Counted from the first letter of the stretch, positions 8,931 to 60,343 are shown. The stretch is 64,000 nucleotides of DNA from Nitrospirota bacterium (GCA_963721805.1 CAVRJY010000005.1:1-64000); one strand, 5' to 3'. The notes: generated by a model from the sequence alone, not told the origin. Program-made: numbers and translations.

Positions 8931-9099
8931 GCCGTTGACCATCGGGGCCGGGGGGCTTCGTTATTCTCTCCCCCCGAAAGCGCGCCCAAATCGTCTTCAG
9001 ACAAGGCAGGGCGAGAAGACCGCCCGATGGTGTACTGTGACGTACATAGAGGGCGAGTCTTCACAGCCCAACGCAGTATCAAGCGATTTGGAGCGCTTT
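8931..9099 (+). repeat. Dispersed structured repeat, copy A (head type I)
   Basis: GCCGTTGACC head; AAAGCGC...GCGCTTT body; GTAC-TGTGAC-GTAC apex. Confidence 0.9.
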
Positions 9100-9101
9100 G
9101 A

Positions 9102-9425
9102 TTACTCTGGGGTATCCGCCGGCGTTACGATGGCGAGGACTACCATCCGTTCGCCTAGATTCGCCCTGAACCCGTGCTGGACCATCGGGTCGCACAGTAC
9201 GCAGGTCTTCTCGTCCGCCTCTACCGTCTCGTCTCCGACGATGAACGTGCCCCGGCCCTGCACGCAGTACATCATCAGCCTCATCGGGGCCTTGTGGGGC
9301 TCCAAGGCCTGCCCGGCCTCAAGGCACATAAGCGCGATGCGCATCTCGGGCTTGTCAGAGAGCATCTCGCGCGTGATCTTGTCGTGCCTGAACGTTATCA
9401 GCTTCTTTAGGTCAATGGTATCCAT
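9102..9425 (-). CDS. Cupin domain protein
   Basis: AGQALEPHKAP...GRGTFIVG...PMVQHG cupin motifs; AAGGAGG RBS before ATG 9425. Confidence 0.85.
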   Translation of the reverse strand: MDTIDLKKLITFRHDKITREMLSDKPEMRIALMCLEAGQALEPHKAPMRLMMYCVQGRGTFIVGDETVEADEKTCVLCDPMVQHGFRANLGERMVVLAIVTPADTPE

Positions 9426-9495
9426 CTGAACGCCTCCTTTTGCATTAATCTTAGCAGGAGCCACACGGTTGCGCTATGACACAGATCAGATCAAT

Positions 9496-9668
9496 GCCGT
9501 TGACCTTGGGGGGCCCGGGGGGCGTATGTTGGAAGTGACACCCCCGAAAGCGCGAGAAATCGTGTCAGACTAGGAAGGGCGAGGAAACCGCCCGATGGTG
9601 TACTGAGATGTACATAGAGGGCGAGTTTTCGAGAACTGACGACGTATCACGCGAGTTTCCCGCGCTTT
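9496..9668 (+). repeat. Dispersed structured repeat, copy B (head type I)
   Basis: Same head, body and apex (GTAC-TGAGAT-GTAC). Confidence 0.9.
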
Positions 9669-9680
9669 GAAAAAGGCTAC

Positions 9681-10499
9681 TTACTTTTCGACCATTCCTA
9701 CTACTGTTATCCCTGCGCTTTCAGCCTCCGCGATAAACTTCTCGCGTTCTACTATGATGCTCTTCTGGGCCTCAATGCCTACCGCCGCTATCCCGGCCTC
9801 GCGCATCACGCCAAGCGTTGCAAGCCCCATCACAGGGACGTCAAACCTCATGTCCTGCTTCGGGCGGCTGACCTTCACGACCACAGCGCCCGGCCCGGCT
9901 AAAAGCCCGCCGCGCCTGATCGCCTCGTCCGTGCCTTCGATAGCCTCTACGGCGACGACCGCGCGGCCCTTCACGACTATCGTCTGTCCGATGTCGAGCC
10001 TCCCGATCTCCTTGGCCATCCTGAAGCCGTATTCGAGGTTGGCGGCCTGCGCCTTATCCGGCTTGCGATGTGTGAGCGTTCCGGCCGGCGTGAGCAGCCC
10101 GCTACAGAACTCCCTCATATCCAGAAGCGCGATGCCCTCTTTCCTGAACTCCTCGGCGAGGGCGTTGAGCATCGTGTCGTCGTTTCGGTCCTTAAGCCTC
10201 ACGAACGCGACCAGGGTGCGCATGTCGAAGTTCACGCCGCCCTTGATGAAGCTGACCTTCGGGACCTTGCCCCCGGCGACCGCCTGGTGTGCGCCGTGGC
10301 GCTTGAGGAACTTGAATATCGCCCCGAGCTTGCCGGGGCTGATCGACTCGACCGCCTCGGAGAACTCCGCGAGCTCGGGCGAGGCCTGCCCGTCGAGCGA
10401 GACGCTTACGACGCGGTAGCCGAGCCGGACCGCCTCGCGGCCCATGAGGACCGGCAGCTCGCCGAGCCCGGCCAGCAGGCCTATTACCTTATTCGTCAT
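9681..10499 (-). CDS. lpxI: UDP-2,3-diacylglucosamine pyrophosphatase LpxI
   Basis: LDIGQTIVV, AVEAIEGTD, QDMRFDVP motifs; in the lpx operon. Confidence 0.9.
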   Translation of the reverse strand: MTNKVIGLLAGLGELPVLMGREAVRLGYRVVSVSLDGQASPELAEFSEAVESISPGKLGAIFKFLKRHGAHQAVAGGKVPKVSFIKGGVNFDMRTLVAFVRLKDRNDDTMLNALAEEFRKEGIALLDMREFCSGLLTPAGTLTHRKPDKAQAANLEYGFRMAKEIGRLDIGQTIVVKGRAVVAVEAIEGTDEAIRRGGLLAGPGAVVVKVSRPKQDMRFDVPVMGLATLGVMREAGIAAVGIEAQKSIIVEREKFIAEAESAGITVVGMVEK

Positions 10500-11295
10500 C
10501 CCTTAAGTACCCCTCTCCCGAGCGATATACCCCGTGTATCCCGGCCGATTCGTAAAACTCCGAGATCTCGCGGACCTCGTCGGTGCGGGGGAGCACTTCG
10601 CCGACCATGCGCAGGGCCTCGGCCAGCGTGAAGTCCTTGCAGGCGATGATGGCGTACGCGCGTTCGATATCCAGCATCGCCTCCGGCGTGAAGCCCTTGC
10701 GTGAGAGCCCTACGCGGTTGATGCCGTAGAGCCGGGTGTCGTCCGTGCCGTGCACGATCACGAATGGGGGGACGTCCTTCTCGATGCGGCTCAGCATGCT
10801 GAGCATCGTATGGGGCCCGATGCGCAAGGACTGCTTGACGACGATCATGCCGCTCAGGAATGCGGAGTCGCCGACCGTGACGTCTTCGGCCAGCGTCACG
10901 AGGTTGGCAATGACGGCGTTGCGGCCGATCCTGCAGCCCGGGTCCACCTGCACGTATGCCATCAGCAGGCAATCGGGGCCGATCTCGGTCACGCGGCCGC
11001 CCGTTCCGGGGTGCACTGCCGCGCACTCGCGGATGACCGTGCCGGCGCCGATGCGCACTCCGGGGCTCCCGGCATCCACGCCCAGCGGTGCGGCCCCGAT
11101 GCTCGCGAAGGGGAAGATCACGCAGCCCCCGCCAACCTCTGCGTCGCGCTCGATGACCGCGTGCGGGTGGACATTTACCCCGTCTCCGAGCACTACGCCC
11201 GGCCCGATGAAGCTGTATGCGCCGACCGTGACGCCCTCGCCTATGTGCGCGCCCCGGTCAATCGTCGCAGTCGGATGCAGAGCGGTACCTCTCAG
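10489..11295 (-). CDS. LpxA-like left-handed beta-helix protein, second paralogue, catalytic histidines lost
   Basis: Homology to the upstream lpxA extends 34 codons above the called GTG (11193) to a CTG overlapping the lpxA stop; AHVAHDC has become VQVDPGC. Confidence 0.75.
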   Translation of the reverse strand: MRGTALHPTATIDRGAHIGEGVTVGAYSFIGPGVVLGDGVNVHPHAVIERDAEVGGGCVIFPFASIGAAPLGVDAGSPGVRIGAGTVIRECAAVHPGTGGRVTEIGPDCLLMAYVQVDPGCRIGRNAVIANLVTLAEDVTVGDSAFLSGMIVVKQSLRIGPHTMLSMLSRIEKDVPPFVIVHGTDDTRLYGINRVGLSRKGFTPEAMLDIERAYAIIACKDFTLAEALRMVGEVLPRTDEVREISEFYESAGIHGVYRSGEGYLRDDE

Positions 11296-12083
11296 CGGTA
11301 AGTCCCCCGCTTGCCTGAGCTCGAGAAGAACTCCACGATGGTGCGCACCTCGTCGGAATACGGCAGCTCTTCCTGCACCTGCCTGAGCGCCTCGCCAAGC
11401 AGCACGCCCTTCTTGGCGATGATGCCGTAGGCGCGCTCGATCTCCTTCATCGTCTCGGGGGAAAACCCCCGGCGTTCGAGCCCGATCTTGTTGACGCCGT
11501 AGAACTTCACCGAGTCCGCGCCCTGCACTATCGAGTAGGGCGGGCAGTCCTTGACGATGCGGCTCATCCCGCCGACCATCACCTGAGGGCCGATGCGTAT
11601 GAACTGGTGGATCACGACCAGGCCGCTTATGAAGGCGTGGTCTCCTATCGTGACGTGTCCCGCGAGCGTCGCGCCGTTGGCCATGATCACGTTATTGCCG
11701 AGCTTGCAGTCGTGGGCCACGTGGGCGTACGCCATCAGGAAGCACTCGGCCCCGAGTTCGGTCAGGCCGTCGCCGCCCAGGGAGGCGCGGTGCACGGTGG
11801 CGCACTCGTGGATGATCGAGCGGGGCCCGATGCGGACTCCGGTAATGCGCTCGGGTGTGTATTTCAGGTCCTGCGGGGCGGTCCCTATGCTCGCAAACGG
11901 GAAGACCTCGCACCCGGCGCCGAGCTCTGAGTCGCGCTCTATCACGGCGTGCGGGTGGATGCGCACGTTGTCGCCGAGCACCACGCCCGGCCCGATTATG
12001 CTGTATGGCCCGACCGTGACGCCCTCGCCCATGCGGACCGTTGGGTCGATGATCGCTGTCGGGTGGATATCGGTTGCCATCAT
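11292..12083 (-). CDS. lpxA: UDP-N-acetylglucosamine acyltransferase
   Basis: IHPTAII start, PQDLKY, LMAYAHVAHDC, LAGHV, IHQF. Confidence 0.95.
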   Translation of the reverse strand: MMATDIHPTAIIDPTVRMGEGVTVGPYSIIGPGVVLGDNVRIHPHAVIERDSELGAGCEVFPFASIGTAPQDLKYTPERITGVRIGPRSIIHECATVHRASLGGDGLTELGAECFLMAYAHVAHDCKLGNNVIMANGATLAGHVTIGDHAFISGLVVIHQFIRIGPQVMVGGMSRIVKDCPPYSIVQGADSVKFYGVNKIGLERRGFSPETMKEIERAYGIIAKKGVLLGEALRQVQEELPYSDEVRTIVEFFSSSGKRGTYR

Positions 12084-12511
12084 ACCTCCACGTCCGTGGT
12101 CATGGCCGATATCTCGGCCTCCGAGACCAGGACGCCGTCCACGCGGGCCTGGGTGGCGAACCGCCAGATCTTGCCGCGCTGCTGTATGACCTCGGCCGTG
12201 ATGCGCAGCTGGTCGCCCGGCACGACCGGCTTGCGGAACTTCGCCTTGTCGACGCCGAGCAGGTAGGTGTTCTGGTTGATCCCGCCCAGCGAGATCACCG
12301 CGAGCAGCCCGGCCGCCTGGGCCATCGTCTCGATCTGAAGCACCCCCGGCATGACCGGCATATCGGGGAAGTGGCCGGTGAAGTGCGGCTCGTTGAAGGT
12401 CACGTTCTTTATCGCCTCGATCCTCTTAAACGGCTCGGAAGAGACCACCCGGTCGATGAGCAGGAACGGGTAGCGGTGCGGAAGGTGTTTCATTATCTCT
12501 TTGCTGTCCAT
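12080..12511 (-). CDS. fabZ: 3-hydroxyacyl-ACP dehydratase
   Basis: [24 protein letters not shown]. Confidence 0.97.
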
Positions 12512-12518
12512 AATCGCC

Positions 12519-13550
12519 TCATTTCTCCTTTCGGCCGCCCACCTGGCAGACGCGCTCTAGTTCGCGCAGCCTCTGGAGCAGCTCAGGCAGACGCTCGAAG
12601 AGCGCCGCGGATTTAATCCAGTTCTTGAGCCCTATCGCGGGGCCGCCGCCGTATGTCCCCTTCTCGAGGTCGCTGCCGACCCCGGTGCGGGCCGCGAGCA
12701 TCGCGCCGGCCGCGATAGTGACGTTGTCCCTGATCGCGCACTGCCCGCCCATCAAGACGCCGTCGCCAATCCGGCAGCTGCCGCCTATCGAGGTGCCGGC
12801 CACTATCAGGCAGTCGCGGCCCATGCGCACGTTATGGCCTATCTGCACGAGGTTGTCGATCTTCGTGCCGCGCCCTATGACGGTCATGCCGGTCGTCGCG
12901 CGGTCTATCGTGGAGTTGGCGCCGACCTCGACGTCGTCGCCGAGCGTGACGCCGCCCACGTGCGGCACCTTCATATGCCCGTCCGGGCCGGAGGCGTAAC
13001 CGAAACCGTCGGAGCCGATCACCGCGCCGGGATGGATTATCACCCGGTCGCCCAGGCTCACGCCGTCGCGCACGACCGCGCCGGGCCAGAGCACGCAGTC
13101 CTCCCCTACCGACGAGCCCCTGCCGACGTATACGCCCGGATAGAGCACGCTGCGCGGCCCTATCGAGGCCCCTTCGGCAACATATGCCCCGGCCATCACG
13201 GTCACTCCGGCTGCGATGCTCGCGCTCCCCGGAACAATCGCCCCCGGGCTCACCCCGGCCGGGCCGTGGTCGGCCGGGTGCAGGGCGCCCAGCAGCAGGG
13301 CGAATGCGCGGTAAGGGTCCCTGACCTTCATCTGGGGCATCGGGAGCCCGTCATAAAACTCGCCGACCAAAACAAGAGAGGCCCCGCTTGGCAGGGCCTC
13401 CTTCAGGTGTCTTTTGTCCTTTATGAACGATGCGTCTCCGCCGCCCGCCTCGGCCAGGGCGCGGGCGCCCGTGATCTCGAGGCCCGGCTCGGCATCCTGA
13501 GGGTATACCCCGAGGGCCGAGACCAGCCCGGCCAGCTCACTGAGCCTCAT
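12519..13550 (-). CDS. lpxD: UDP-3-O-acyl-glucosamine N-acyltransferase
   Basis: [21 protein letters not shown]. Confidence 0.95.
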
Positions 13551-13553
13551 TCA

Positions 13554-14153: not shown

Positions 14154-14220
14154 AGCGTTTAAATCCTCCTTGGGATGGTTCTGCTGTTTTAGATAAGCCT
14201 TGTCAGGCTCCGGCGGCCGC

Positions 14221-16497: not shown

Positions 16498-16542
16498 GGG
16501 TAGATAGTATATATCTAGGCCCCAATATAAGTAAATACGGCG

Positions 16543-16667
16543 AAAGCGCGCGAGAATTCCGGGATACTGCGTCACCAGGCAAAAAACGATCCTCGACGTA
16601 TGTCCATACGTACATAGAGGGCGAGTCTTTGAAGCCCAACGCAGTATCAAGCGATTTGGGGCGCTTT
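16543..16667. repeat. Dispersed repeat, copy C: tail-to-tail chimera of two 3' halves
   Basis: Left part is the reverse complement of a 3' arm, right part is a forward 3' arm; joined at the apex around 16597-16613. Confidence 0.8.
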
Positions 16668-16731
16668 CAAACTTCGTTAGCGCGCTGCCCCCAACTTTAC
16701 GCTCGGGGCGGTATTCTGATACTATCTACCT

Positions 16732-19427: not shown

Positions 19428-19441
19428 GGGGAGAGGGATTA

Positions 19442-19513
<72 letters not shown>

Positions 19514-19565
19514 GCCTTGCCCTCGATAAGACAGGAAAATATTATATCACAGCGGCGGCCAGCCG

Positions 19566-21737: not shown

Positions 21738-21740
21738 TGC

Positions 21741-24243: not shown

Positions 24244-24314
24244 AAGCTGTAAGTATACCCTATTGGGGCTATGAGGAGTGGTTGGAGCGTCTTGAAAGCG
24301 CTCGAAGCGTCTTG

Positions 24315-24485
24315 AAAGCGCTCCGAATCGCTTGATGCTGCGTTGGACTTCAAAAACTCGCCCTCTATGTACATCCAAGTACACCATCGGGCGGTTTTCT
24401 TGTCCTGCCTTGCCTGAAGACGATTTAGGCGCGCTTTCGGGGGGAGAGAATAACGGAGCCCCCCGCGCCCCACGAGGTCAACGGC
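24315..24485 (-). repeat. Dispersed structured repeat, copy D (head type I)
   Basis: Reverse-strand full copy. Confidence 0.9.
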
Positions 24486-24519
24486 ATTGATTGGATGGAA
24501 AAGTGGTATTATTCCTGAA

Positions 24520-25023: not shown

Positions 25024-25038
25024 CCTGCCTTCCTTGCC

Positions 25039-25199
25039 AAAGTCGCGCTAAATACGCGTGATACGTTGTCACGGCTCGGAAATCCGTCCTCCAGAGTACA
25101 TCTCAGTACACTTGCGGACGTTTTCCTCGCCGTTCCTAGTCTGACGCGATTTATCGCGCTTTAAGTATCCGCTGCATAATCGTGCGAGCGGTCAACGGC
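25039..25199 (-). repeat. Dispersed structured repeat, copy E (head type II)
   Basis: GCCGTTGACCGCTCGCACGATTATGC head on the minus strand. Confidence 0.9.
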
Positions 25200-25211
25200 A
25201 TATCTAATTAA

Positions 25212-25389
25212 GCAGTTGACCTTGGGGGTGCGGGGGTCCAGCGGCTGGGCCGCGTATAACCCCCGAAAGCGCAGCCAAATCGTCTTCAGACTAGGCAGCG
25301 GCGAGAAGATCGCCCGATGGTGTACTTGGACGTACATAGAGGGCGAGTCTTTGAAGCCCAACGACGTATCAAGCGATTTGGGGCGCTTT
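25212..25389 (+). repeat. Dispersed structured repeat, copy F (head type I)
   Basis: GCAGTTGACC head; 12 bp from the head of copy E. Confidence 0.9.
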
Positions 25390-25399
25390 CCCTTCCCGC

Positions 25400-26309
25400 T
25401 TAGAGCTCTTCGAAGTGACTAAGCGCCTTAAACCCTCTATAGCGGTTCTCTATCTCGCGATAGTCGAGAGAGCGGAGCCTATCCAGGCTAAACGCCTCGA
25501 CATTAAACGAGGCCATGACAGAGCCCATCACTACCGCGCGCCGCATCGCGGCCTCGCCGAAGTCCATCGAGTTCGCGAGGTATCCGATGAACCCGCCCGC
25601 GAAGGTGTCGCCCGCGCCGGTCGGGTCGTAGACGTCCTCGAGCGGGTATGCCGGGGCCGCGAAGACCCCGTTGGCCGAGAACATCAGCACGCCGTACTCG
25701 CCGCGCTTTATCACGACCGTCTGTGGCCCGAGCGTCATGATCACACGCGCGGCCTTCACGAGGTTGCGTCTCGCCGGTGAGCTGCCGGGCCTCGGCGTCG
25801 TTGATCAGCAGTATGTTGACGAGCTTGAGTGTCTTAAGCAGCGAGTCGCGCTGGCCCGAGATCCAGAAGTTCATCGTATCCATGGCGATGACCTTGGGGG
25901 CCTTGACCTGCCCCACGACCTCGCGCTGGAGGTCGGGGTGTATATTGGCGAGGAAGACGACCTCGGCCTCGCGGTGCGCGGCGCTCAGTATGGGCTTGAA
26001 GGTCTCAAAGACGTTAAGCTGCGTATCGTGCGTGCGTGCCTCGTTTAGCTCGTATGTGTATGAGCCCTTCCAGCGGAAGGTCTTCCCGGCGACGCGTTCT
26101 AATCCCGAGAGGTCGACCCCGCGCGATTTGAGGAACTTGACGTGCTTGTCCGGGAAGTCCTCGCCGACTACGGCGACGAGGCTTACGTCCGTGAAGTAGC
26201 TGGCCGAGGTCGAAAAGTACGTGGCAGAGCCCCCGAGCGCGTCTTCGACCTCGCCAAAGGGCGTCTTTACGGAATCCAGCGCCATCGAGCCCACCACCAG
26301 TAGTCCCAT
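25400..26309 (-). pseudogene. PfkB family carbohydrate/nucleoside kinase with one frameshift (possibly an assembly error)
   Basis: LGGSATY N-terminal half and DPTGAGDTF C-terminal half in different frames; extra base near 25766. Confidence 0.8.
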
Positions 26310-26445
26310 CCTCACAGCCTCCCGCAAGCGTAATTTCTCGGCGTATTATACACGAGATGGAATCGGGGGAGGCAATTTTGGTGTTGACACACGCGCTGTT
26401 TGGCATTAATATCTGTGCATCCATCAACACACGGAGGAACCGATA

Positions 26446-27178: not shown

Positions 27179-27200
27179 TGCCATAAATCAAGCGCGGCCT

Positions 27201-27545: not shown

Positions 27546-27762
27546 CTCGATTCAAACCTCCTTATATGTATGTCCCCGAAAGCCGGGTTGCACGAATGCG
27601 ATATTTTATATGATCGGAGCGGGAGAGTCCAGGGCAAGCGGGATGGAATCAAGGAGGGGGCAAGGCACGCACTATCTCGGCATTCGTTTGCTTAAGACAA
27701 AGTTGAAAAGGAGGGGCGGGGCATCAAGGCCGACATGCGGCTGATGCCCCACACCGAGTGAA

Positions 27763-30892: not shown

Positions 30893-30950
30893 GCCTTATT
30901 ATAGCACTCCCGGCTTCAAGTAAATCCCGGACGCACTATCTCTAATAAAA

Positions 30951-31152
30951 GCCGTTGACCACGGGGGTGCGGGGGGCGTCCGTTATCCTCTCCCCCCGAA
31001 AGCGCGCCCAAATCGGCTTCAGACAAGGGGACCGGTTGGCCCCTTTTCTTTAGGAAGAGGGGTCCGTGACCTCCGCCCGATGGTGTACTGTGACGTACTT
31101 AGAGGGCGAGTCTTTGAAGACCAACGACGTATCAAGCGATTTGGAGCGCTTT
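30951..31152 (+). repeat. Dispersed structured repeat, copy G (head type I, double-hairpin insert)
   Basis: Full copy with an insert at about 31027-31074. Confidence 0.9.
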
Positions 31153-31191
31153 CACTTCCGCATTGACTCCCCCCCGACATAACCGATAAAA

Positions 31192-34911: not shown

Positions 34912-34943
34912 AGGAATCTTACACCGCTCCCGCTACCTTCTTG

Positions 34944-35118
34944 AAAGCGATCCAAAGTTCCGGGATACTGCGTCACGTCTCGGAAATCCGTCCTCGATGT
35001 ACGTCTCAGTACACCGTCGGACGTTTTCCTCGCCGTTTCCTTGTCTGCCGAAATTTGGCCCGCTTTATGGGGTTAAACGCGGCCCAGCCGCTGGACCCCA
35101 TACCCCGTGGTCAACGGC
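34944..35118 (-). repeat. Dispersed structured repeat, copy H (head type I)
   Basis: Reverse-strand full copy. Confidence 0.9.
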
Positions 35119-35300
35119 GTTAAATTAGGGACACCCATACTGCTACCGGCTACTTTGACATAGTATGTCTCAGTGTGATAAATAATAAGTGGAGGTGCAG
35201 ATATGACATAGGATAAAATGGCTATATTTTTTGAAATGGTTTCACCAAGTATAAGACGCCCTTTGGGCCGAAAATGATTGCGTTGTAAAAGGAAAAGAAA

Positions 35301-35483
35301 ATGGAAATTCAGCCGTCAAAGAAGAGCCAAGCGCTCCCACGTTGTCAGACCAAGATAAGCGGGTCAGGGTATAACTGCACTACCAATGATCCTGGGGTTC
35401 AGCAATACATAGGCAAGGGCATCTTAATTCTATTGATCTGTGTTGGAGTTGCCGTTATATTAAAGGCGATGCCCCGCAACTGA
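35301..35483 (+). CDS. Small hypothetical membrane protein
   Basis: AAGGA RBS, one C-terminal TM helix, lower GC; between repeats H and I. Confidence 0.45.
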   Translation: MEIQPSKKSQALPRCQTKISGSGYNCTTNDPGVQQYIGKGILILLICVGVAVILKAMPRN

Positions 35484-35510
35484 TCGTTCTGTGCATAAGT
35501 AAATAGAGGC

Positions 35511-35554
35511 TATAGACACCACGGCCCCTCGTTCGAGGGGCCGTGGTGTCTATA
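35511..35554. repeat. Perfect 21-bp-arm inverted repeat
   Basis: TATAGACACCACGGCCCCTCG-TT-CGAGGGGCCGTGGTGTCTATA. Confidence 0.9.
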
Positions 35555-35661
35555 TGTTTAACATGGGATCGATGATCTTGCAATCGTGAATAAAATTAAT
35601 CGCTAATCAAGAACCTTCATTGGCGCGGGGGCAGCGGGAGCAAACCAGCCACTATTATAAT

Positions 35662-35822
35662 GCCGTTGACCGCTCGCACGATTATGCAGGGGAAGGTTAA
35701 AGTGCGAGAAATCGTGTCAGACAAGGAACGGCGAGGAAAACCGTCCGCAGTCGTACTGGGATGTACTTCGAGGACGGATTTCCGAAGCCGTGACGACGTA
35801 TCACGCGCATTTCGCGCGCTTT
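35662..35822 (+). repeat. Dispersed structured repeat, copy I (head type II)
   Basis: Full copy. Confidence 0.9.
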
Positions 35823-35828
35823 GAGAAC

Positions 35829-43629: not shown

Positions 43630-43650
43630 GCTGCTATTCTCACCTTCTTC

Positions 43651-43772
43651 AAAGCGCTCCAAATCGCGTGATACGTCGTCAGTTCTCGAAAACTCGCCCT
43701 CGGAGTACATCACAGTACACCTCCGGGCGGTCTTCTTGCCCTGCCTTGTCTGAAGACGATTTGGCGCGCTTT
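43651..43772 (-). repeat. Dispersed structured repeat, copy J (headless body)
   Basis: Complete hairpin body without the GCCGTTGACC head. Confidence 0.88.
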
Positions 43773-43806
43773 CCTAAGAGTACCGGCTGGCTGTATAATA
43801 ATCTCC

Positions 43807-48017: not shown

Positions 48018-48050
48018 TTCACCACATCATTCCTGTCCGATAGATCTTCT

Positions 48051-48238
48051 AAAGTCGCGCTAAATACGCGTGATACGTCGTCACCGTTCGAAAAACGATC
48101 CTCGAAGTATGTCCATATACGACTGCGGGGGTCACAGACCCCTCCTGTAAAGAAAAAGGTGCCCATGGCACCCCTAGTCTGACGCGATTTATCGCGCTTT
48201 AAAGTGGTCATTGCATAATCGTGCGAGCGGTCAACGGC
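48051..48238 (-). repeat. Dispersed structured repeat, copy K (head type II, double-hairpin insert)
   Basis: Reverse copy; apex GTAT-ATGGAC-ATAC; insert at about 48127-48174. Confidence 0.88.
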
Positions 48239-48281
48239 ATTGATTAGAGCATTTCGATTGCTGATTTGATATAATCGGGAT

Positions 48282-48509
48282 ATGAGGAAGATCAAGATAA
48301 CCGCCGAGCTGTTGCCTGCCGAGGAAGGCGGCTTCGTGGTGTATTGCCCCGAACTCGACATAACCACCGAGGGCGAGACCGCCGAGGAGGCAATCGCGAT
48401 GCTCAAGGATGCCGCGCTTGGGTATGTCGAGGTCACGGGCATCGAGAACATCCCCCATTTTTCCGCTAATACCGTCCGGGAAGAGCTTGAACTCGTGGTG
48501 AATGGCTAA
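48282..48509 (+). CDS. hicB: HicB family antitoxin
   Basis: EEGGFVVYCPELDITTEGETAEEA. Confidence 0.88.
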   Translation: MRKIKITAELLPAEEGGFVVYCPELDITTEGETAEEAIAMLKDAALGYVEVTGIENIPHFSANTVREELELVVNG

Positions 48510-48750
48510 AGCGCCTTCCGTCAGCGGCAAGGAGCTGTCCGCTGTGCTTGAGAGGGAGGGCTTCAAGCTCGTAAGGCAGACCGGAAGCCACAGGATATAT
48601 CAGAAGCAGACCGAAGAAGGCACAATTACAATCCCCGTCCCGGTGCATTCGAACAAGCCGCTTAAGAAAGGCACCCTCCACGCGATCATCAAGAAAGCCG
48701 GAATCACGATGGAGAGACTTTCGTTCCTGCTCGCGATCCTGTTCGGCTAG
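48502..48750 (+). CDS. hicA: HicA family toxin
   Basis: GFKLVRQTGSH, VPVH..LKKGTLHAI. Confidence 0.9.
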   Translation: MAKAPSVSGKELSAVLEREGFKLVRQTGSHRIYQKQTEEGTITIPVPVHSNKPLKKGTLHAIIKKAGITMERLSFLLAILFG

Positions 48751-48827
48751 GGGGCAGCGCCCCTTGGCTGCCGAAATTTATCGCGCTTTGATGTAGCTTA
48801 TGCCTAACCGTGCGAGCGGTCAACGGC
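48751..48827 (-). repeat. Dispersed repeat, copy L (5' half only, head type II)
   Basis: Head plus left arm, ending at a GGGGC-GCT-GCCCC hairpin after CAAG. Confidence 0.8.
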
Positions 48828-48841
48828 ATGTTGAGGCTACC

Positions 48842-49666
48842 TCATTCAGCGGTTGACCAAGCAGCGTAATACGTGTCGTTCAAGTAATTTGCAAGCTTGT
48901 TGGTCCCATCAACAAACTGCTTCCATACCTGTCGAGTTTCAACAAGCAGAAAATCCAACTCAAAATCAGGAGGTTGTTGTCCAGGGATTGCCAATAATTT
49001 GCCTTTTTCTTGCTGTATTGGTGCTATCTGAGTCTCCTTAGGCCAATCCACATATGGTGTCTCATTGTGGACAAATTCATGTCGATATGTTTTCATCAGC
49101 TTTCTTGTTTCTTCTGAATCGAAACATTCATAAAGCAGACTGCACAATTCAGGGTTCTTCTTATTGGCTTTCTTGCAATATATTGAGAAAGACATTTTCT
49201 GTTTATTTGTTTCTGTATTGATAAAACATAATTTAGCATGCGAGTTCAGTAACCATGCGAGCTTTTCACGATAAGAATGTAGCCTGAATATCGCATTATC
49301 CAAGTAATATTTCGAATAAAACCAAGCTTCGCCACAGAACGATTTCGAATCCACAAAATCAAGGAATTCAGCACACTGACTTTTTGTCTTTTGCTCATTA
49401 AGGTATCTTGACCAAGCTAAGGCCCAACTGAGACTAACAGCTATAGAGCTTCCACAGTTGTAGACTTGTCTCCACCATTTTGGAATATTATTTACATCAC
49501 AGTAAAACTCAATAGAATCGAGAGCGGGACGCTTCAGAATATTACCTAGAGAAATCCTGCCTTTTGGCAGTGGCAAACTGTCCCAGTCAGTATTTTCAAT
49601 TTTTAAGGATGTTGCGTATTCGGCAACTATACGGAGTCTATCAAGGTAGGCTTCTTTTTCATCCAT
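48842..49666 (-). CDS. Probable HEPN-domain protein (Cthe_2314-like)
   Basis: Low GC; DNAIFRLHSYREKLAWLLN and RHEFVH (RxxxxH). Confidence 0.65.
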   Translation of the reverse strand: MDEKEAYLDRLRIVAEYATSLKIENTDWDSLPLPKGRISLGNILKRPALDSIEFYCDVNNIPKWWRQVYNCGSSIAVSLSWALAWSRYLNEQKTKSQCAEFLDFVDSKSFCGEAWFYSKYYLDNAIFRLHSYREKLAWLLNSHAKLCFINTETNKQKMSFSIYCKKANKKNPELCSLLYECFDSEETRKLMKTYRHEFVHNETPYVDWPKETQIAPIQQEKGKLLAIPGQQPPDFELDFLLVETRQVWKQFVDGTNKLANYLNDTYYAAWSTAE

Positions 49667-49696
49667 CTTTCTTCCCTCTCGGCCACCAGCAAAACC

Positions 49697-49918
49697 TTAC
49701 GTCAGCAGGCTCGCCACAGAGATGTCCTCGTCGATCTCTTCCCAGTGTATGCCGATTCCCCGGCCTATGAGGCGCCATCCGGCGCGCTGGGCCTCGGACG
49801 CGTCACGGAGCCTAGGGAACCACTCGAACGGGACACTTATCTGCCGGCCGTCTAGGAGGCGCACATGCAACATATCGTTATCGAACCATACGGCGTTTGC
49901 TATATGAGCAGTAGACAT
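49697..49918 (-). CDS. DUF2442 domain protein
   Basis: LLDGRQISVPFEWFPRL, GIHWEEIDEDIS. Confidence 0.88.
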   Translation of the reverse strand: MSTAHIANAVWFDNDMLHVRLLDGRQISVPFEWFPRLRDASEAQRAGWRLIGRGIGIHWEEIDEDISVASLLT

Positions 49919-50160
49919 GAGTTGATTATACCACTTCGATTATTGCCGGCCGATTGTCCCCACTCACCGCTGAGCTGTGCCCCCTTCATTAACAATAGTT
50001 AATCGAAAGTTAATAGAAAACGCACAGGGCTCAATTTTTCCTATAACCTTCTGTTTATATATAAACCAAAGTTTGGCATTCTTTAGTGTATAGTGGTGAC
50101 ATGAGCATGATAGAATCATATTTGATGGGCTGGACAGGCGAGGATGCAGGGTTCCGCACT

Positions 50161-50344
50161 TGTTCGGATAAATCGCTAAATACCGCTCTTTTTATCCGAA
50201 CATCCGAACAAGACGGACTCAGTGAAGCTATATATTCCGCAGGGTTAGCCTCGTTTTTGTCTCCAACATCCGAACAAAAAAGGCAAAAACGCGCGCGCAC
50301 GCGCGCGGAATGCGTAACTATACCTAAGCGCGAACGTCCGAACA
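50161..50344. repeat. Cluster of five TCCGAACA octamers
   Basis: One inverted copy (50161) and four direct copies (50195, 50203, 50269, 50337). Confidence 0.7.
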
Positions 50345-50345
50345 C

Positions 50346-50517
50346 GCCTTTGACCTCGTGGGGCGCGGGGGGCCTCCGTAATGTTCTCCCCCCGAAAGCG
50401 CGCCCAAATCGGCTTCAGACAAGGCAGGGCGAGAAGACCGCCCGATGGTGTACTGTGACGTACATAGAGGGCGAGTCCTCGCAGCCCAACGCAGTATCAA
50501 GCGATTTGGCGCGCTTT
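50346..50517 (+). repeat. Dispersed structured repeat, copy M (head type I)
   Basis: GCCTTTGACC head; body nearly identical to copy A. Confidence 0.9.
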
Positions 50518-50559
50518 GCACCTATTGCCAATAACGATTATTTTGAGTACCATATACCC

Positions 50560-52027: not shown

Positions 52028-52031
52028 CTGG

Positions 52032-53762: not shown

Positions 53763-53823
53763 TGGGTTATAATATCCGACGCCCGGCGCTTTGTAAAGCC
53801 GCAGGCGGCAAGGAGGGCGCGGC

Positions 53824-54708: not shown

Positions 54709-54726
54709 GGTACTGACGCTTTTTGG

Positions 54727-54884
54727 AAAGTCGCACTAAATCGCGTGATACTGCGTCGCGAGTCAAAAATCGCCCTCGGAGTACATCCCAGTACACCATC
54801 GGGCGGTCTTCTCGCCGCTCCTAGTCTGACGCGATTTATCGCGCTTTGGTGTAGCCTCGCATAATCGCGCGAGCGGTCAACGGC
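54727..54884 (-). repeat. Dispersed structured repeat, copy N (head type II)
   Basis: Reverse full copy. Confidence 0.9.
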
Positions 54885-55027
54885 ATTTATTAGAGCATCC
54901 CAGCCGCTGCCCCTCGGACTGGCGATGAAATATTTCATGAGATAAAATCCGCTCGCGATGTTTTGAAAAATATTGTATTATTCATCATCCTTGCGAGTTG
55001 AGCAAATTTTGTATCTAAAGGGGTTTA

Positions 55028-55627
55028 TTGGAGGTTAATCCGATGGAACTAAAATTAAAAGATATGTATAGCTATCTGCTCTCACATACTTTCCCGGGGT
55101 TATTTTTTGGGATAGAGATAATGTTTATATTCAAATGGTTTATGAACGTCGATTTGATATCACCAATCATTATTGAATTTACAAAGCCTGACAATGCAGG
55201 CATCGTCATTGCAGTGGTTGTTCTCTCATATGCTTTTTCCACACTATTGGGTTTCGTACTCGACGGTATCCATCATTTTGTATATGAAGATTTCATGCGA
55301 AAATTCGATGGATATAAAGATGACGATATTTTTGCTGCTATAAATACAATTGAGCGGATGCAAATATACCAACATTTCGTTGAAGATGATTACTGGTACC
55401 CCTATGAAGCATATGCAAATATTAGCATTGCAATGTTGCCTGGCCTTTTTTTATTGACATACAAGCTAATTAATTTAGGGATTACGTGGTGGATCATCTG
55501 CTTATTTACTATCGTATATATTTTAATCCTCTATATTATGTTTTATGAAGCAAAATGCACATATGAATGCTGCTGCGATAGAGAAGAACAAATAATTAAA
55601 AATTTTAGCAATGATAAGAAAGAATAA
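55028..55627 (+). CDS. Hypothetical membrane protein (low GC)
   Basis: About four TM segments; GGAGG RBS favours ATG 55043. Confidence 0.7.
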   Translation: MEVNPMELKLKDMYSYLLSHTFPGLFFGIEIMFIFKWFMNVDLISPIIIEFTKPDNAGIVIAVVVLSYAFSTLLGFVLDGIHHFVYEDFMRKFDGYKDDDIFAAINTIERMQIYQHFVEDDYWYPYEAYANISIAMLPGLFLLTYKLINLGITWWIICLFTIVYILILYIMFYEAKCTYECCCDREEQIIKNFSNDKKE

Positions 55628-55651
55628 TGGCATTTTTACAGAGAACGATGA

Positions 55652-56167
55652 ATGGTTAAAATAGAAGTGGTCAAACAATTTGATGAGCAAACATTGAAAG
55701 ATATCTTATTTATCCTAAGAGATTCTTTCCCATTACAATGGCGGTATGATGATGATTATACCTATTACAAATCAATGTTAAACAATAAAATGAACATACA
55801 TCTTTTTCTAATAGTTGATGGTAGGAGAGTTGGTTATTTACATGCAATCCCTCATGTTGATGCGGCAGATGAATTGAAAGAAGATGATCCAGAAATGCGA
55901 CCCGACTCTTCAATGTATTATATTGAAGTCGTAGGAATACGTTCCGAATACCGAGGCAGAAAAGGTTTTACGCTCATGCTTGAAGCATTAAAGCATGAAT
56001 GCAGATTAAGAGGCATAAGCAAAATATCGTTGCATGCAAGGGTTCACACTAATTTTAGCGAGATTATTCAACATAAACTAAATGTCGATACTATAAGAAG
56101 GGTTGAGAAATGGAAACATTACAATTTTGAAGAACCTACTGATTATATTGAGGCATCTTTCTATTAA
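55652..56167 (+). CDS. GNAT family N-acetyltransferase (low GC)
   Basis: YYIEVVGIRSEYRGRKG acetyl-CoA motif, ISLHA. Confidence 0.75.
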   Translation: MVKIEVVKQFDEQTLKDILFILRDSFPLQWRYDDDYTYYKSMLNNKMNIHLFLIVDGRRVGYLHAIPHVDAADELKEDDPEMRPDSSMYYIEVVGIRSEYRGRKGFTLMLEALKHECRLRGISKISLHARVHTNFSEIIQHKLNVDTIRRVEKWKHYNFEEPTDYIEASFY

Positions 56168-56232
56168 TTACACCAACCGATGAGTTCTTCGACACTTGAG
56201 TCCACCGGCACCCATGATAATCTCTAATTAAT

Positions 56233-56405
56233 GCCGTTGACCTTGGGGTGCGGGGTCCAGCGGCTGGATCGCATAACCCCGAAAGCGCGCCCAAATCGTC
56301 TTCAGACAAGGAAACGGCGAGGAAAACGTCCGATGGTGTACTGAGACGTACATCGAGGACGGATTTCCGAGACGTGACGCAGTATCAAGCGATTTGGAGC
56401 GCTTT
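56233..56405 (+). repeat. Dispersed structured repeat, copy O (head type I)
   Basis: Full copy. Confidence 0.9.
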
Positions 56406-56420
56406 GAAGAAGGCACCAGA

Positions 56421-56708
56421 CTAGTTGAACTGCACTCCCACGCGGTAGAGGTTGGAGGTTAGGCGCGAGGTCCACATCACCTGCGCCGTACACGGACAGT
56501 GCATGATCTCGGCGCTCGTGATCTCGATCTCGGTGCCCGCCTGCAGCGGGACGGAAGTGAACAGGCCCGCGCCGTTACGGCTCAGGTTGGTCGTAACGGC
56601 CGAGCAGGTGTCATACTCCGTGCGGCCGTAAACGCTCTTAAGGTAAGCGTAGTCGATCGTAACGCTGTAGAAATCGCGCCTGTCAGTCCTCTTGTCAGAT
56701 GCCGCCAT
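56421..56708 (-). CDS. PilZ domain protein
   Basis: RxxxR (RTDRR) and NLSxxG, GVQF. Confidence 0.85.
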   Translation of the reverse strand: MAASDKRTDRRDFYSVTIDYAYLKSVYGRTEYDTCSAVTTNLSRNGAGLFTSVPLQAGTEIEITSAEIMHCPCTAQVMWTSRLTSNLYRVGVQFN

Positions 56709-56851
56709 GCATCTCTCCCTCGCGCCTGCCCGTGAAACCCCCTAGGCCAGGCACCATTAAAATACACCTTTCATGCCGTATAGGCAAATTAAATATATTT
56801 ATGAGAGCGATCCGCCGCGCCTATGGGCCGGGTGGCTTATAATAATGAACG

Positions 56852-58054
56852 ATGTTGGATGCCTTGAAGCTCATGGCCGTATTCGCGGCGGTGGTCGCGC
56901 TGCTGCGCTACAAGGTCCCCGTAGGGCTCTCGATGCTCGGCGGCGCGCTCCTGATGGCGCTGCTCTACGCGATGCCGCCGGGCGCGATCATGGACGCAGC
57001 GCGGGTCGCATTCATAGGCAGGACGACGTTTGAGTTCCTGGGGGCGCTGATGCTGATCCGCGTGCTGGAGCAGGTGATGAGGGAGCGCGAGCTGCTGGCG
57101 CGGATGATGTCGGCCTCGCGCGCGTATCTCATAAGCCGGAGGGCCGGGATCGTCGCGATGCCCATCCTGATCGGGCTTCTGCCCTCTGTAGGCGGGGCGT
57201 ATTTCTCGGCCCCGATGGTCGAGGAGTCGACGGCCGGCACGGGGATGACGGCCGAGGAGAAGGGGTTTATCAACTTCTGGTTCCGCCACATATGGGAGCC
57301 GACGCTGCCGCTCTATCCGGGCCTGCTGCTCGCGACCGCGGTCTCGGGGCTGCCGCTGCGCACGCTCGTCGCGGCCAACACCGGCGTGACCCTCGTGATC
57401 CTCATAACCGGCTTCGTCTTCAGCATGCGCGACCTGCGGGGGCTCCGCGCCGAGGCCGCAACGCGCAACCCGCGCGAGCTCTGGAGCTTCCTGCCCCTGG
57501 TCGCGATACTCGTTATGGTGATGGCGTTTAACGTGACGCTCTATATCGCGATGGCCGTGGCCATAGCGGGGCTTTACGCCGTATGCCGCATGAGCTGGCG
57601 CGAGATAGGCCGCTCGCTGCGCGCCGGGCTGTCGTGGGAGCTGGTGGCGCTGATCTGGGGCGTGATGTTCTTTAAGGCCGTGATGGAGGGCTCCGGGGCG
57701 GTGGGGGGCATGAGCGCGTCGTTCGCGGGGGCCGGGATACCGCTATGGGCCGCGCTCGCGGTGCTGCCGTTTCTGACAGGGCTGTTGACCGGCTTCACCA
57801 TCGGATTCGTCGGCGCGACCTTCCCGCTCCTGCTGAGCCTGCCCGGCGGGGGCTCGGTTGCGGCCGTGAGCTTCGCCTTCGCGTGCGGGTACATAGGGGT
57901 GCTGCTCTCGCCCGTGCATATATGCTTCGTGCTCACGCGCGACTATTTCAAGGCGGACCTCGGCGGCAGCTACAGGATGATGCTCCTGCCTCTGGTGCTC
58001 GTCGCGGCATACTCAGCCGCGCAGTACGCGGCGCTCTCGCTCTGGATGCGATAG
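56852..58054 (+). CDS. DUF401 family membrane protein
   Basis: GLLPSVGGAYFSAP, NFWFRHIWE, LSPVHIC. Confidence 0.85.
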   Translation: MLDALKLMAVFAAVVALLRYKVPVGLSMLGGALLMALLYAMPPGAIMDAARVAFIGRTTFEFLGALMLIRVLEQVMRERELLARMMSASRAYLISRRAGIVAMPILIGLLPSVGGAYFSAPMVEESTAGTGMTAEEKGFINFWFRHIWEPTLPLYPGLLLATAVSGLPLRTLVAANTGVTLVILITGFVFSMRDLRGLRAEAATRNPRELWSFLPLVAILVMVMAFNVTLYIAMAVAIAGLYAVCRMSWREIGRSLRAGLSWELVALIWGVMFFKAVMEGSGAVGGMSASFAGAGIPLWAALAVLPFLTGLLTGFTIGFVGATFPLLLSLPGGGSVAAVSFAFACGYIGVLLSPVHICFVLTRDYFKADLGGSYRMMLLPLVLVAAYSAAQYAALSLWMR

Positions 58055-58132
58055 CGCACGCATCTTGACACATCGACTGCGGTTACTATACTTTAGAAGT
58101 TTGGGGGAGAATGATTACGGAGGATTGCACTG

Positions 58133-59761
58133 ATGTTTATTAAGCTCAATATAGGCCAGAGGCTCGGGGCCGGCTTCACGCTGCTGGTCGCGCTGATGGT
58201 CCTGCTCGTGATAATAGGCCTGGTCGGGATGAAGAAGATCCGCACCGAACTCGACATCGTCGTCGGCGAGAACAACGTAAGGGCGGTCACGGCCAACGAG
58301 ATGGTCGAGCAGGTCCGAAACGTCGCGATCACTATCCGCAACATCCTGCTGACCACGGACCAGGCATTCGTCGGGGCCGAGGTCGATAGCGTCAAGGAGC
58401 GCCGCGCGATCTACAACAAGGACTTCGAGAAGCTCGTGCTCATGATCCCGAAGGAAGACTCCCAGGCATGGGCCCTGATACAGAAGGTCAAGGAGGCGCA
58501 GGCCATTGCCGGCCCGCTGACCAACAAGGTAATAGACCTCGGGCTCGACGGCAGGGACAAAGAGGCCGCCGAGATCATGATCAAGGAGACCGGCCCGGCG
58601 GTCGGCGACCTCATCGACGCGCTCCAGACGCTGGCCGACTTCCAGCAGTACGAGACCGAACTCGCGTACCAGTCCGCGCAGGTCACGTACAAGAAGGCCC
58701 AGATCATACTGCTTGCCATCGCGGCCGTCGCGATACTGATCGCGATCATCGCGGCTACGGTGCTCCGGCGCGGGATCATAAGACCCCTCAACGCGGGCGT
58801 CGACGCCGCGGGCATGATAGCGCGCGGGGACCTCACCCTGAAGATCGACGGCGGCGGCACCGACGAGATCGGCCTCCTGATGCGCTCGATGAAGGACATG
58901 GCCGACAAGCTCCGCGGGATCATCGGCCAGATCAAGGCCGTGTCGGTCTCGCTCAACGACGCCAGCACGCACCTGAGCGGGAAGTCCGAGCAGATATCCG
59001 AGACGACCTCCAGCCAGTCCTCGCGCTCCACGCAGATAGCGACCTCGGCCGAGGAGCTCACCCAGACCGTCATAGACGTCGCCAGAAACGCTTCCAGCAT
59101 CGCCGACAGCGCCAAGAGCACGGTAGAGAAGGCCCAGGAGGGCGACCGCATCGTCGAGGCCTCGGTCAAGGAGATCCGCGAGATCGCGACCGCCGTAAGC
59201 GGCACCTCGAAGGTGCTGGAGTCCCTGCACGAGCGCTCGAAGCAGATCGGCGAGATCGTCAAGGTCATCAACGACATCGCGGACCAGACGAACCTGCTGG
59301 CCTTAAACGCGGCCATCGAGGCAGCGCGCGCGGGGGAGCAGGGCCGCGGCTTCGCGGTCGTCGCGGACGAGGTAAGGAAGCTCGCCGAGCGCACCGCGCG
59401 CGCGACCTCGGAGATCGGCGGGATGATAACCTCGATCCAGCGCGAGGTCGACGAGTCGGTCGGCTCGATGAAGGGCGCTATCACGAAGGTCGACACCGGC
59501 GTGCAGCTCTCGACCCGCGCCGGACAGCAGCTCAAGGAGATAGTCTCCAGCATCAGCGACCTGCAGGGCCTCGTCCAGCAGATAGCGTCTGCCACCGAGG
59601 AGATGTCCGCCGTGGCCGAGGGCATAGGCTCGGACATATCGAGCATCGCTGAGTCGTCAAACGACCTGTCCTCGGGCACGATAGAGATCGCGCGCTCATC
59701 GTCCGAACTGGCGCAGATAGCTTCGACGCTCAAGCACACGATGGACGGGTTTAAGATCTAG
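58133..59761 (+). CDS. Methyl-accepting chemotaxis protein
   Basis: Four-helix sensor, HAMP, IADQTNLLALNAAIEAARAGEQGRGFAVVADEVRKLA. Confidence 0.97.
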   Translation: MFIKLNIGQRLGAGFTLLVALMVLLVIIGLVGMKKIRTELDIVVGENNVRAVTANEMVEQVRNVAITIRNILLTTDQAFVGAEVDSVKERRAIYNKDFEKLVLMIPKEDSQAWALIQKVKEAQAIAGPLTNKVIDLGLDGRDKEAAEIMIKETGPAVGDLIDALQTLADFQQYETELAYQSAQVTYKKAQIILLAIAAVAILIAIIAATVLRRGIIRPLNAGVDAAGMIARGDLTLKIDGGGTDEIGLLMRSMKDMADKLRGIIGQIKAVSVSLNDASTHLSGKSEQISETTSSQSSRSTQIATSAEELTQTVIDVARNASSIADSAKSTVEKAQEGDRIVEASVKEIREIATAVSGTSKVLESLHERSKQIGEIVKVINDIADQTNLLALNAAIEAARAGEQGRGFAVVADEVRKLAERTARATSEIGGMITSIQREVDESVGSMKGAITKVDTGVQLSTRAGQQLKEIVSSISDLQGLVQQIASATEEMSAVAEGIGSDISSIAESSNDLSSGTIEIARSSSELAQIASTLKHTMDGFKI

Positions 59762-59815
59762 GGGGCGACTGCCCCCTCTTCCTGTTCGAGCCGCCAGAGG
59801 CGACTCTCACTAATA

Positions 59816-59836
59816 AGGGGCCTGCCGGCCCCTTTT
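59816..59836 (+). terminator. Rho-independent terminator
   Basis: AGGGGCC-TGCC-GGCCCCT followed by a T run. Confidence 0.6.
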
Positions 59837-59955
59837 CGCTTTCTAACCCGATATATTCGAAATTCATTGATTCTTCACACGCCAGCGTTAAACTATAAAG
59901 TTAGAAACATCCTCTGCCCGCGCGGAGGGGAAAATCCATTAGGGAGGCGTATCGA

Positions 59956-60189
59956 ATGAGAAAAGTACTGTTAGTCTTGATGGGAGCCGTATTTGCCTTG
60001 AGCCTCATGACTTCCGCGTATGCCATGACAAACTCCGCAACCGCCGGCAAAGGCGCTGGCACCGCGATTGCCGGGACTCAGACCGGGACGCATGCCGGCA
60101 AGACCGGAACTCACAGGCATGCCGGCTACAAGGGCTCGCATAAGCATGCGGCCAACAAGACCGGCGTGGCAAACACGACAGCCAAGTAA
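59956..60189 (+). CDS. Small secreted low-complexity protein
   Basis: GGAGG RBS, signal peptide, Thr/Gly/His/Lys-rich. Confidence 0.75.
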   Translation: MRKVLLVLMGAVFALSLMTSAYAMTNSATAGKGAGTAIAGTQTGTHAGKTGTHRHAGYKGSHKHAANKTGVANTTAK

Positions 60190-60220
60190 TAACTCTGAAT
60201 ATTACGAGCGAAGAGGGAAA

Positions 60221-60343
60221 GGGGGCCGGATGGCCCCTTCTCTTTTATGGGAGGGGTCCGTGACCCCCGCAGGTGTACTGGGATGTACTCCGAGGGAGCG
60301 GCTGCGAGCCGTGACGACGTATCACGCGATTTCGGCTCGCTTT
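60221..60343 (+). repeat. Dispersed repeat, copy P (3' half starting at the double-hairpin module)
   Basis: GGGGCC-GGAT-GGCCCC and GGGGTC-CGT-GACCCC hairpins, then the apex and right arm. Confidence 0.8.

Follow-up and report, generated by a model that had tools for sequence, protein, structure and literature searches.

The bcr1 repeat of the Bacillus cereus group is a dispersed, non-coding and transcribed element of about 155 bp in which compensatory changes keep a long double-stranded fold (PMC3184786). The same review presents Correia repeats (Correia repeat enclosed elements, CREE) and miniature inverted-repeat transposable elements (MITEs) of the enterobacterial repetitive intergenic consensus (ERIC) type as hairpin-forming intergenic repeats of 100-200 bp in hundreds of copies, and an integron mobilisation unit in which two MITEs flank a cargo, with a 5-bp duplication and a matching insertion sequence (PMC3184786). 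Repetitive extragenic palindromes (REPs) and their paired form (REPINs), associated with REP-associated tyrosine transposases (RAYTs), are in turn abundant at gene ends and often arranged as inverted doublets (PMC3116915, PMC2817692). Together, bcr1, Correia/ERIC-type MITEs, REPINs and MITE-flanked cargo units are the closest described relatives of the repeat family reported here, which is dispersed between the genes of a 64,000-nucleotide stretch of a Nitrospirota bacterium (GCA_963721805.1, CAVRJY010000005.1:1-64000; hereafter the window, in which positions are counted from the first nucleotide).

The comparison reveals likenesses and differences with each of them. Like bcr1, the Nitrospirota repeat is dispersed, non-coding and endowed with a long fold kept by compensatory changes; unlike bcr1, for which flanking 5-bp direct repeats are described (PMC3184786), it has none, and it is found phylum-wide and is polar toward gene boundaries and islets. 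It shares with Correia/ERIC elements the format of an intergenic hairpin present in hundreds, and its version in relatives carries outer inverted repeats ending in TA, whereas the copies of this genome lack any outer inverted repeat or duplication and the core is associated with varied outer modules. The likeness to REP/REPIN-RAYT systems lies in abundant extragenic palindromes, often in inverted doublets, at gene ends, but the unit is much larger and the Y1 genes of this genome belong to an IS200-like element with an unrelated hairpin. As in the integron mobilisation unit, two small hairpin-forming repeats bracket unrelated cargo, except that here 51 different cargoes are bracketed, always with the heads inward and free of duplication. 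Neither the target-site duplication of MITEs nor the Y1 gene linked to REP/RAYT systems was found with this genome's repeat. Finally, its copies differ from an integron attC array in being dispersed and in inverted pairs rather than tandem and in the same orientation; no integrase search was made. Our literature searches returned no paper linking Nitrospirae to MITEs and no published description of the repeat.

We favor, with a probability of about 0.5, the reading that a structured-RNA module has spread as a non-autonomous repeat and now forms a polar border between core genes and acquired DNA. The repeat family itself is confirmed. The window is a core chromosomal stretch (genes including dnaE, purL, bamA, lpxI, nadE and a holB-like gene) of a 94%-complete genome of 2.78 Mb, with 60% GC and nine contigs, in which a home-made open reading frame (ORF) caller placed 2493 genes. 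The initial annotation had listed 16 intergenic copies on both strands. An nhmmer profile seeded from copies A and B matched 15 of the 16 starts, and all 15 detected copies lie between called genes, on the plus and minus strands; the sixteenth, at 48751, is a short minus-strand fragment that was undetected by the nhmmer profile and by the covariance models. The proposed search for copies genome-wide and in relatives returned 230 hits in the genome at E up to 1e-3 (161 full length), spread over six of the nine contigs, and the core in 6 of 41 near relatives. The consensus unit of about 190 nt comprises a head (CTCTAAT.AATGCCGTTGACC), then a hairpin of a G-run and a C-run whose loop varies, instead of which about a quarter of the copies carry a second head type, and a core of 130 nt that forms a single long interrupted rod-like hairpin. 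The head motif claimed at the outset, GCCGTTGACC, occurs 22 times with at most one mismatch against 5.0 expected, a number reached by none of 100 shuffles. In the window and in 40 relatives' loci, tRNA and transfer-messenger RNA (tmRNA) were the sole Rfam families matched at gathering score, and near the core Rfam gave no match at E up to 10 in one search and at E up to 1 in another.

Evidence for a selected fold comes from covariation. The compensatory changes claimed for three stems are borne out by the pair table of this genome's copies, with 58 CG versus 12 UA pairs in the inner stem, 67 CG versus 6 UA at the apex, and 61 GC, 8 CG and 4 AU in the middle stem. Covariation, which the initial annotation proposed to test, exceeded the permuted, slid and shuffled controls, both here and in other genomes of the phylum. 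When this genome's cores were grouped into 41 disjoint nearest-neighbour pairs, we counted 50 pair-keeping double changes, versus a mean of 7.2 and a maximum of 14 with permuted partners (200 permutations). Nearest-neighbour cores also differ less at paired than at unpaired sites (0.099 versus 0.186 differences per site), so the claim that the unpaired loop motifs are the most conserved part stands for CAAGG, GAGG and ACGC.G, which are nearly invariant, but not for the unpaired columns overall. In three sets of copies from other genomes, both sides changed in 21, 37 and 31 of 43 pairs, and 81-92% of cells were paired versus 31-53% for slid partners. The second set (37/43) draws its 27 copies from many families and reaches 89.9% paired cells versus 34-46% with slid partners, and the third (31/43) consists of 43 further copies; none of 500 shuffles matched the observed values. 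These foreign alignments were fitted to covariance model R2 and hence lean to its structure, a bias limited by the slid controls and by an independent-pair test. Among five copies that form tmRNA leaders in five genomes, 17 of 43 pairs co-vary and the upstream flanks are partly alignable, which hints at constraint acting in place at this position, replacement by other copies being also possible.

These comparisons show that the fold of the core is under selection, both within the genome and across the phylum, in agreement with the proposal that selection acts on a folded single strand. The notion that the copies are decaying duplications or chance similarities, with an unconstrained structure, may call on their age (median nearest-neighbour identity of 0.897) but is hardly credible, since covariation exceeds every control and paired sites change at half the unpaired rate. 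A structured RNA or a non-autonomous repeat had been put forward in its place, and because dispersed-repeat behaviour (the 230 hits) and an RNA-like conserved core both hold, the two options stand together.

Which strand folds can be approached through wobble pairs. The recommended comparison of G:U with A:C variants picks the head-to-tail strand, with 175 versus 36 in this genome's copies, and 64 versus 27 and 125 versus 20 in copies of other families. Among variants shared by at least four copies, 11 columns have G:U and no column has A:C; singletons amount to 11 G:U versus 16 A:C. The apical stem retains a basal G.U pair in 39/41, 27/27 and 40/43 foreign copies. In addition, the forward strand folds better than the reverse by 7-19 kcal/mol in seven of eight copies tested, copy A being a tie. 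Taken together, wobble-pair bias and folding energies indicate that it is the head-to-tail strand that folds, most simply as RNA. A K-turn, CsrA sites and integration host factor (IHF) sites were also considered for the loops and head and dropped, in part because they did not fit.

In this genome, the repeat has its tail at a gene boundary and its head toward low-GC accessory DNA with restriction and toxin-antitoxin genes, which is a new observation. An opposite-strand gene lies on the tail side of 108 of 156 full copies, and 83 of these 108 tails are located -10 to +20 nt from the stop of that gene; the remaining 48 point their tail toward the start of a same-strand gene, mostly 20-100 nt off. 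This preference for gene 3' ends, with 54 of 156 copies between convergent genes, and the palindromic sequence would suit a DNA-level element of the REP or bacterial interspersed mosaic element (BIME) kind where genes end, such as a cruciform or a site bound by gyrase or a nucleoid protein. We find this quite improbable given the asymmetry between strands in G:U versus A:C variants and in folding energy, which is not expected for a duplex or a cruciform, the size of the 130-nt core compared with the 20-40 nt of REPs, and the lack of a linked RAYT. In the window, the tail is within 16 nt of an opposite-strand stop in 8 of 15 copies. The copies and islets of the window are as follows.

8916..9105, plus strand: copy A, full, with head, G-run hairpin and core; tail overlapping a minus-strand cupin gene at its stop.
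9481..9674, plus strand: copy B, full; tail 7 nt from the minus-strand lpxI stop, head 17 nt from the cupin gene start.
16543..16669, plus strand: copy C, core only, headless; 63 nt upstream of a same-strand M16 peptidase gene.
24310..24497, minus strand: copy D, full; tail toward the start of the holB-like gene.
25038..25163, minus strand: copy E, core plus type-2 head to about 25199; tail 15 nt from a nitroreductase stop; head-to-head with F at a 35-nt gap.
25198..25389, plus strand: copy F, full; tail 11 nt from the stop of a minus-strand pfkB-like ORF.
30939..31154, plus strand: copy G, full, with a terminator-like left-arm insert; 38 nt upstream of dnaE.
34939..35127, minus strand: copy H, full; paired head-to-head with I, as the left arm.
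35128..35658: islet H-I, 531 nt, computed GC 0.446.
35659..35827, plus strand: copy I, type-2 head; tail 2 nt from a response-regulator stop.
43645..43778, minus strand: copy J, core only; tail 16 nt from the stop of a CCG/4Fe-4S gene, 5' side 29 nt from the purL start.
48050..48250, minus strand: copy K, type-2 head, with a terminator-like left-arm insert; left arm of a pair with M.
48251..50343: islet K-M, 2093 nt, GC 0.473; HicA toxin domain gene, adjoining small ORF, HEPN protein, fragment L and module X.
48768..48828, minus strand: fragment L (the copy first placed at 48751), type-2 head followed by roughly 22 nt from the start of the core, read by eye.
49984..50343, plus strand: module X, attached to the head of M; rich in AT, with ATCCGAACA repeats and, on the minus strand, a CG palindrome of 18 nt and then a T-run.
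50344..50518, plus strand: copy M, full, from the nhmmer profile.
54728..54896, minus strand: copy N, type-2 head; paired with O, as the left arm.
54897..56220: islet N-O, 1324 nt, GC 0.347; a 199-aa ORF of no assigned family and a GNAT acetyltransferase.
56221..56411, plus strand: copy O, full; tail 10 nt from a PilZ gene stop.
60215..60347 (nhmmer match 60265-60344), plus strand: copy P, partial, carrying a terminator-like insert; tail in contact with a cytochrome c assembly gene at its stop.

The polarity is also visible in base composition. The 500-nt flanks have a median GC of 0.498 on the head side versus 0.614 on the tail side, the head side being the lower in 145 of 161 copies, and 211 of the 457 low-GC windows of the genome are at most 2.5 kb from a head, in a zone amounting to 15% of the genome. 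With heads turned to low-GC DNA and tails placed at gene boundaries, adjacent head-to-head pairs lie close together (51 of 70 less than 3 kb apart, versus 6 of 68 tail-to-tail pairs) and bracket islets. The 51 segments enclosed head-to-head with gaps of 300-4000 nt have a GC of 0.34-0.63, most far below the genome mean; in seven further pairs the gap is below 300 nt, and E/F, the minimal pair, has its heads arranged as an inverted repeat with 12 nt of AT-rich spacer between them. A Pfam scan of 44 ORFs from 19 islets left many without a match and otherwise returned an MmeI-type enzyme, a methylase with an Mrr domain, MazE, Gp49 with its HTH partner, DUF4160/DUF2442, HNH, ankyrin repeats and insertion sequences. 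The window islets contribute a HicA domain gene, a HEPN protein, a GNAT acetyltransferase and the nitroreductase. Separately, 36 copies from other Nitrospirae metagenome-assembled genomes (MAGs; loci L042-L116) display a weaker GC polarity in the same direction (0.504 on the 5' side versus 0.540 on the 3' side; 5' lower in 25/36).

Such an arrangement could alternatively mark a landing pad, where a recombinase would recognise the head or the head-to-head palindrome and islets would integrate or be exchanged between inverted copies. The 51 bracketed islets, the seven close pairs, which resemble empty sites, the E/F inverted repeat, the crowding of low-GC windows around heads and a cargo of defence and toxin-antitoxin genes all agree with it. 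We nevertheless consider it unlikely, since no recombinase is tied to the copies, the inner islet borders are devoid of repeats or duplications, and pair partners are no more alike than random copies (identity of 0.714 versus 0.711); moreover, it leaves the conserved hairpin, the strand bias and the tRNA/tmRNA leader position in relatives unexplained. The same identities give no sign of concerted evolution of pair partners. A specialization into left-arm and right-arm head types was also rejected, the combinations being close to random (20 mixed, 19 type 1/type 1 and 3 type 2/type 2, as grouped by eye).

Beyond the near relatives, the core was found in 19 of 151 genomes of the phylum, with 10 of 11 in one family (f22) and the rest scattered over six other families. 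Among the matches listed when 185,579 species genomes were scanned for a pattern, 43 loci out of 76 pass the covariance model and come from seven MAGs, those named being Nitrospirae/Nitrospirota, while 31 loci from other phyla and two Nitrospirae loci fail it. Metagenome contigs gave no match to the genome-specific apex pattern, and loci retrieved through NadE (identity of at most 62%) contained no repeat copy in 873 kb; the DnaE proteins of family relatives are only 40-49% identical. In some relatives the core sits within an extra 27-bp inverted repeat with TA at both ends, an outer repeat that also carries other inserts of 105-320 bp; one MAG has a different outer repeat and the f22 copies have none. 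Since the outer modules differ across genomes, the core travels with different carriers.

Another position of the core emerged from 58 copies of other families, 51 of them from f22. Nineteen are placed just upstream of a tRNA gene (14 copies) or the tmRNA gene (five genomes), at -3 to +10 nt and always on the same strand; the tRNA genes concerned are those for Pro, Asp, Thr, Leu, Ser, Gln, Glu and Met, and two of the tmRNA calls were missed by ARAGORN and made by Rfam. Seven copies are followed by a ribosome-binding site and a start codon at +10 to +30, thirteen by an antisense stop codon at 0 to +41 nt, and nineteen fall in none of these classes. Promoter-like sites (at least 9 of 12 positions) precede 10 of the 58 copies versus 2 of 58 control regions, as exemplified by TTGACA-17-TATGAT located 15 nt before a core. 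The 5' leaders of pre-tRNAs and pre-tmRNAs are removed by RNase P, and ordinary ones are short and unconserved. The f22 core is like them in its same-strand position next to the mature 5' end, but it differs in being a 130-nt conserved fold that is reused before many genes and in the absence of this position from the present genome. Several other arrangements were noticed, with two tandem cores before one tRNA gene at three f22 loci (L225, L238 and L245), an element between two tRNA genes at L238 and L274, and one 19 nt after a tRNA-SeC gene at L234. Type-A copies of f22 (L254-L257, L259 and L273) carry a conserved 30-nt module, CTAATACAAACGCATTAACTAAAGTGACATC, directly upstream of the core; by eye it resembles the head of this genome at about 10 of 19 positions, and a -10-like TAAAGT stands 6 nt before the core.

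Concerning the way copies spread, the longest words shared between flanks are no longer than in a shuffled control (220 copies, and the outer flanks of 53 head-to-head pairs), with two exceptions at C5 73518 (16 nt) and C1 655569 (11 nt), C1, C4 and C5 being contigs of this genome. No copy pair reaches 98% identity, and from such divergence the copies look old and the family now quiescent. There is no replication-strand bias, plus and minus copies being about equal in every 150-kb bin of three contigs. The suggested link of repeat copies to a transposase, a RAYT or a reverse transcriptase did not materialize for Y1_Tnp, DDE_3 or RVT_1. Six IS200-like units of 602 bp, 99.5-100% identical, each encode a 144-aa Y1 transposase (C1:42301-42660, 366622-366981, 1252034-1252393 and 1452182-1452541; C4:138543-138902 and 146508-146867). 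All six are less than 1 kb from a head, in low-GC islets, and have at both ends the same 20-nt hairpin, which is unrelated to the repeat. By hand cross-tabulation, Y1 genes occur in 105 of 151 phylum genomes and 14 of the 19 that carry the repeat, and two copy-rich, 99%-complete relatives (G003 and G047) have none. DDE_3 and RVT_1 had no match in this 94%-complete genome. A gene for a small GIY-YIG nuclease of the Ssn type was not found either, the sole GIY-YIG match lying in a 654-aa frame that we take to be UvrC.

A purely selfish MITE or foldback DNA, in which the hairpin would serve transposition alone (by forming a single-stranded DNA intermediate or by providing matched inverted ends) and positions would be the harmless sites left by selection, is a serious rival, possible in our judgment if on the doubtful side. 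High copy number, the patchy distribution (6/41 relatives), the TA-ended outer inverted repeat of relatives with its alternative inserts, and several insertion sequences in or near copies speak for such an origin, as does the confinement of G:U variants to multiplied lineages, which fits selection at the copying step. As to terminal inverted repeats, relatives have the 27-bp outer repeat and this genome's copies a one-sided head and internal hairpin arms only. On the other hand, target duplications were not found in this genome. A parent element with the same ends was sought in five genomes, where outer-repeat pairs are spaced at 105-320 bp only and never at 1-2 kb, in assemblies that are fragmented. 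The absence of DDE_3 and reverse transcriptase genes from the genome, the unlinked Y1 transposase and the even strand distribution argue in the same direction. Furthermore, families that differ in their outer modules still share the fold and loop motifs, which are also kept at the tmRNA position, and the spacing to tRNA 5' ends is far tighter than harmlessness demands. Among the insertion sequences, one of about 1.06 kb with a 326-aa transposase, IS30-like by eye, interrupts three copies at the same left-arm point, splitting them by identical 1063-nt gaps (L014:7256-8350, at C1 ~387.2-388.4 kb, and C1 ~649.3-650.4 kb and ~759.6-760.7 kb).

The structured-RNA border that we favor may be outlined as follows. 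The 130-nt core is a rod-like hairpin occurring across Nitrospirota, whose head-to-tail strand is probably kept foldable by selection, most simply as RNA. In f22, it would lie between a promoter and the mature 5' end of a tRNA, a tmRNA or an ORF and be transcribed as a 5' leader, which RNase P would cut off tRNA and tmRNA. In the present genome, the core may have multiplied with its one-sided head and G-run hairpin to about 230 copies as a non-autonomous, now quiescent element. Surviving copies are polar, the tail at a gene boundary (usually a convergent stop) and the head toward low-GC acquired DNA, so that inverted pairs bracket accessory islets. RNA coming from the head or islet side could then fold into the hairpin and be processed or stopped there, which may protect the adjacent core gene against transcription coming out of the islet. 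A bolder version, which we hold only tentatively, makes the core a new functional class of Nitrospirota RNA, a highly made tRNA/tmRNA leader released by RNase P and recruited some 230 times here as a border element that stops or processes islet transcripts and protects core genes.

Several observations weigh against this border interpretation. None of the 49 tRNA and tmRNA genes of this genome has a tail-adjacent copy, and the flank and identity data above give no sign of copy movement. A C.A mismatch in the inner stem is conserved in 41/41 relatives' copies and would be a G.U pair on the opposite strand. The evidence for RNA consists of wobble-pair bias and position, and single-stranded DNA also tolerates G:T pairs. 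By eye, the head of this genome has no evident promoter of proper spacing. Gene positions come from the home-made ORF caller, in which stops are exact and starts are not. A sigma-70 promoter in the head was rejected, TTGACC being present with no -10 hexamer at 16-18 nt (by eye). Intrinsic termination by the core was examined as well, and only three T follow it, with no U-run behind a GC-rich hairpin; terminator-like hairpins are limited to the inserts of variants G, K and P and to module X.

Sequences attached to the copies deserve mention on their own. The left-arm insert of G, K and P (30996-31156, 48048-48205 and 60215-60347) comprises a terminator-like hairpin with a T-run, then GGAGGGG and GTG, which resemble a ribosome-binding site and a start codon. 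About 19-30 copies extend 350-375 nt upstream of the head as module X-like sequence, and some 27 heads are preceded by another module, of about 50-100 nt, in which CTATTCGCG words recur (e.g. C4 195558, C1 339198 and C1 52786). Next to copy F, the 119-aa ORF (25400-26327, minus strand) has a PfkB kinase match limited to the C-terminal portion of the profile (positions 215-289 of 302) and is overlapped by a longer ORF in another frame; this pfkB-like gene may be frameshifted or broken.

To conclude, dispersed hairpin repeats are common, but few have a phylum-wide covarying fold, a defined folded strand or a precise tRNA/tmRNA position. What is new here is the placement of the tail at a gene boundary and of the head at accessory DNA, the 51 bracketed islets and the tRNA/tmRNA-leader position in f22, in a repeat that marks almost half of the low-GC DNA of its genome. 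If it is only selfish DNA, it would offer a well-resolved case of a repeat travelling on different carriers. If it acts as a working RNA, it would represent an uncatalogued RNA class and provide a handle on how this genome fences off acquired genes.

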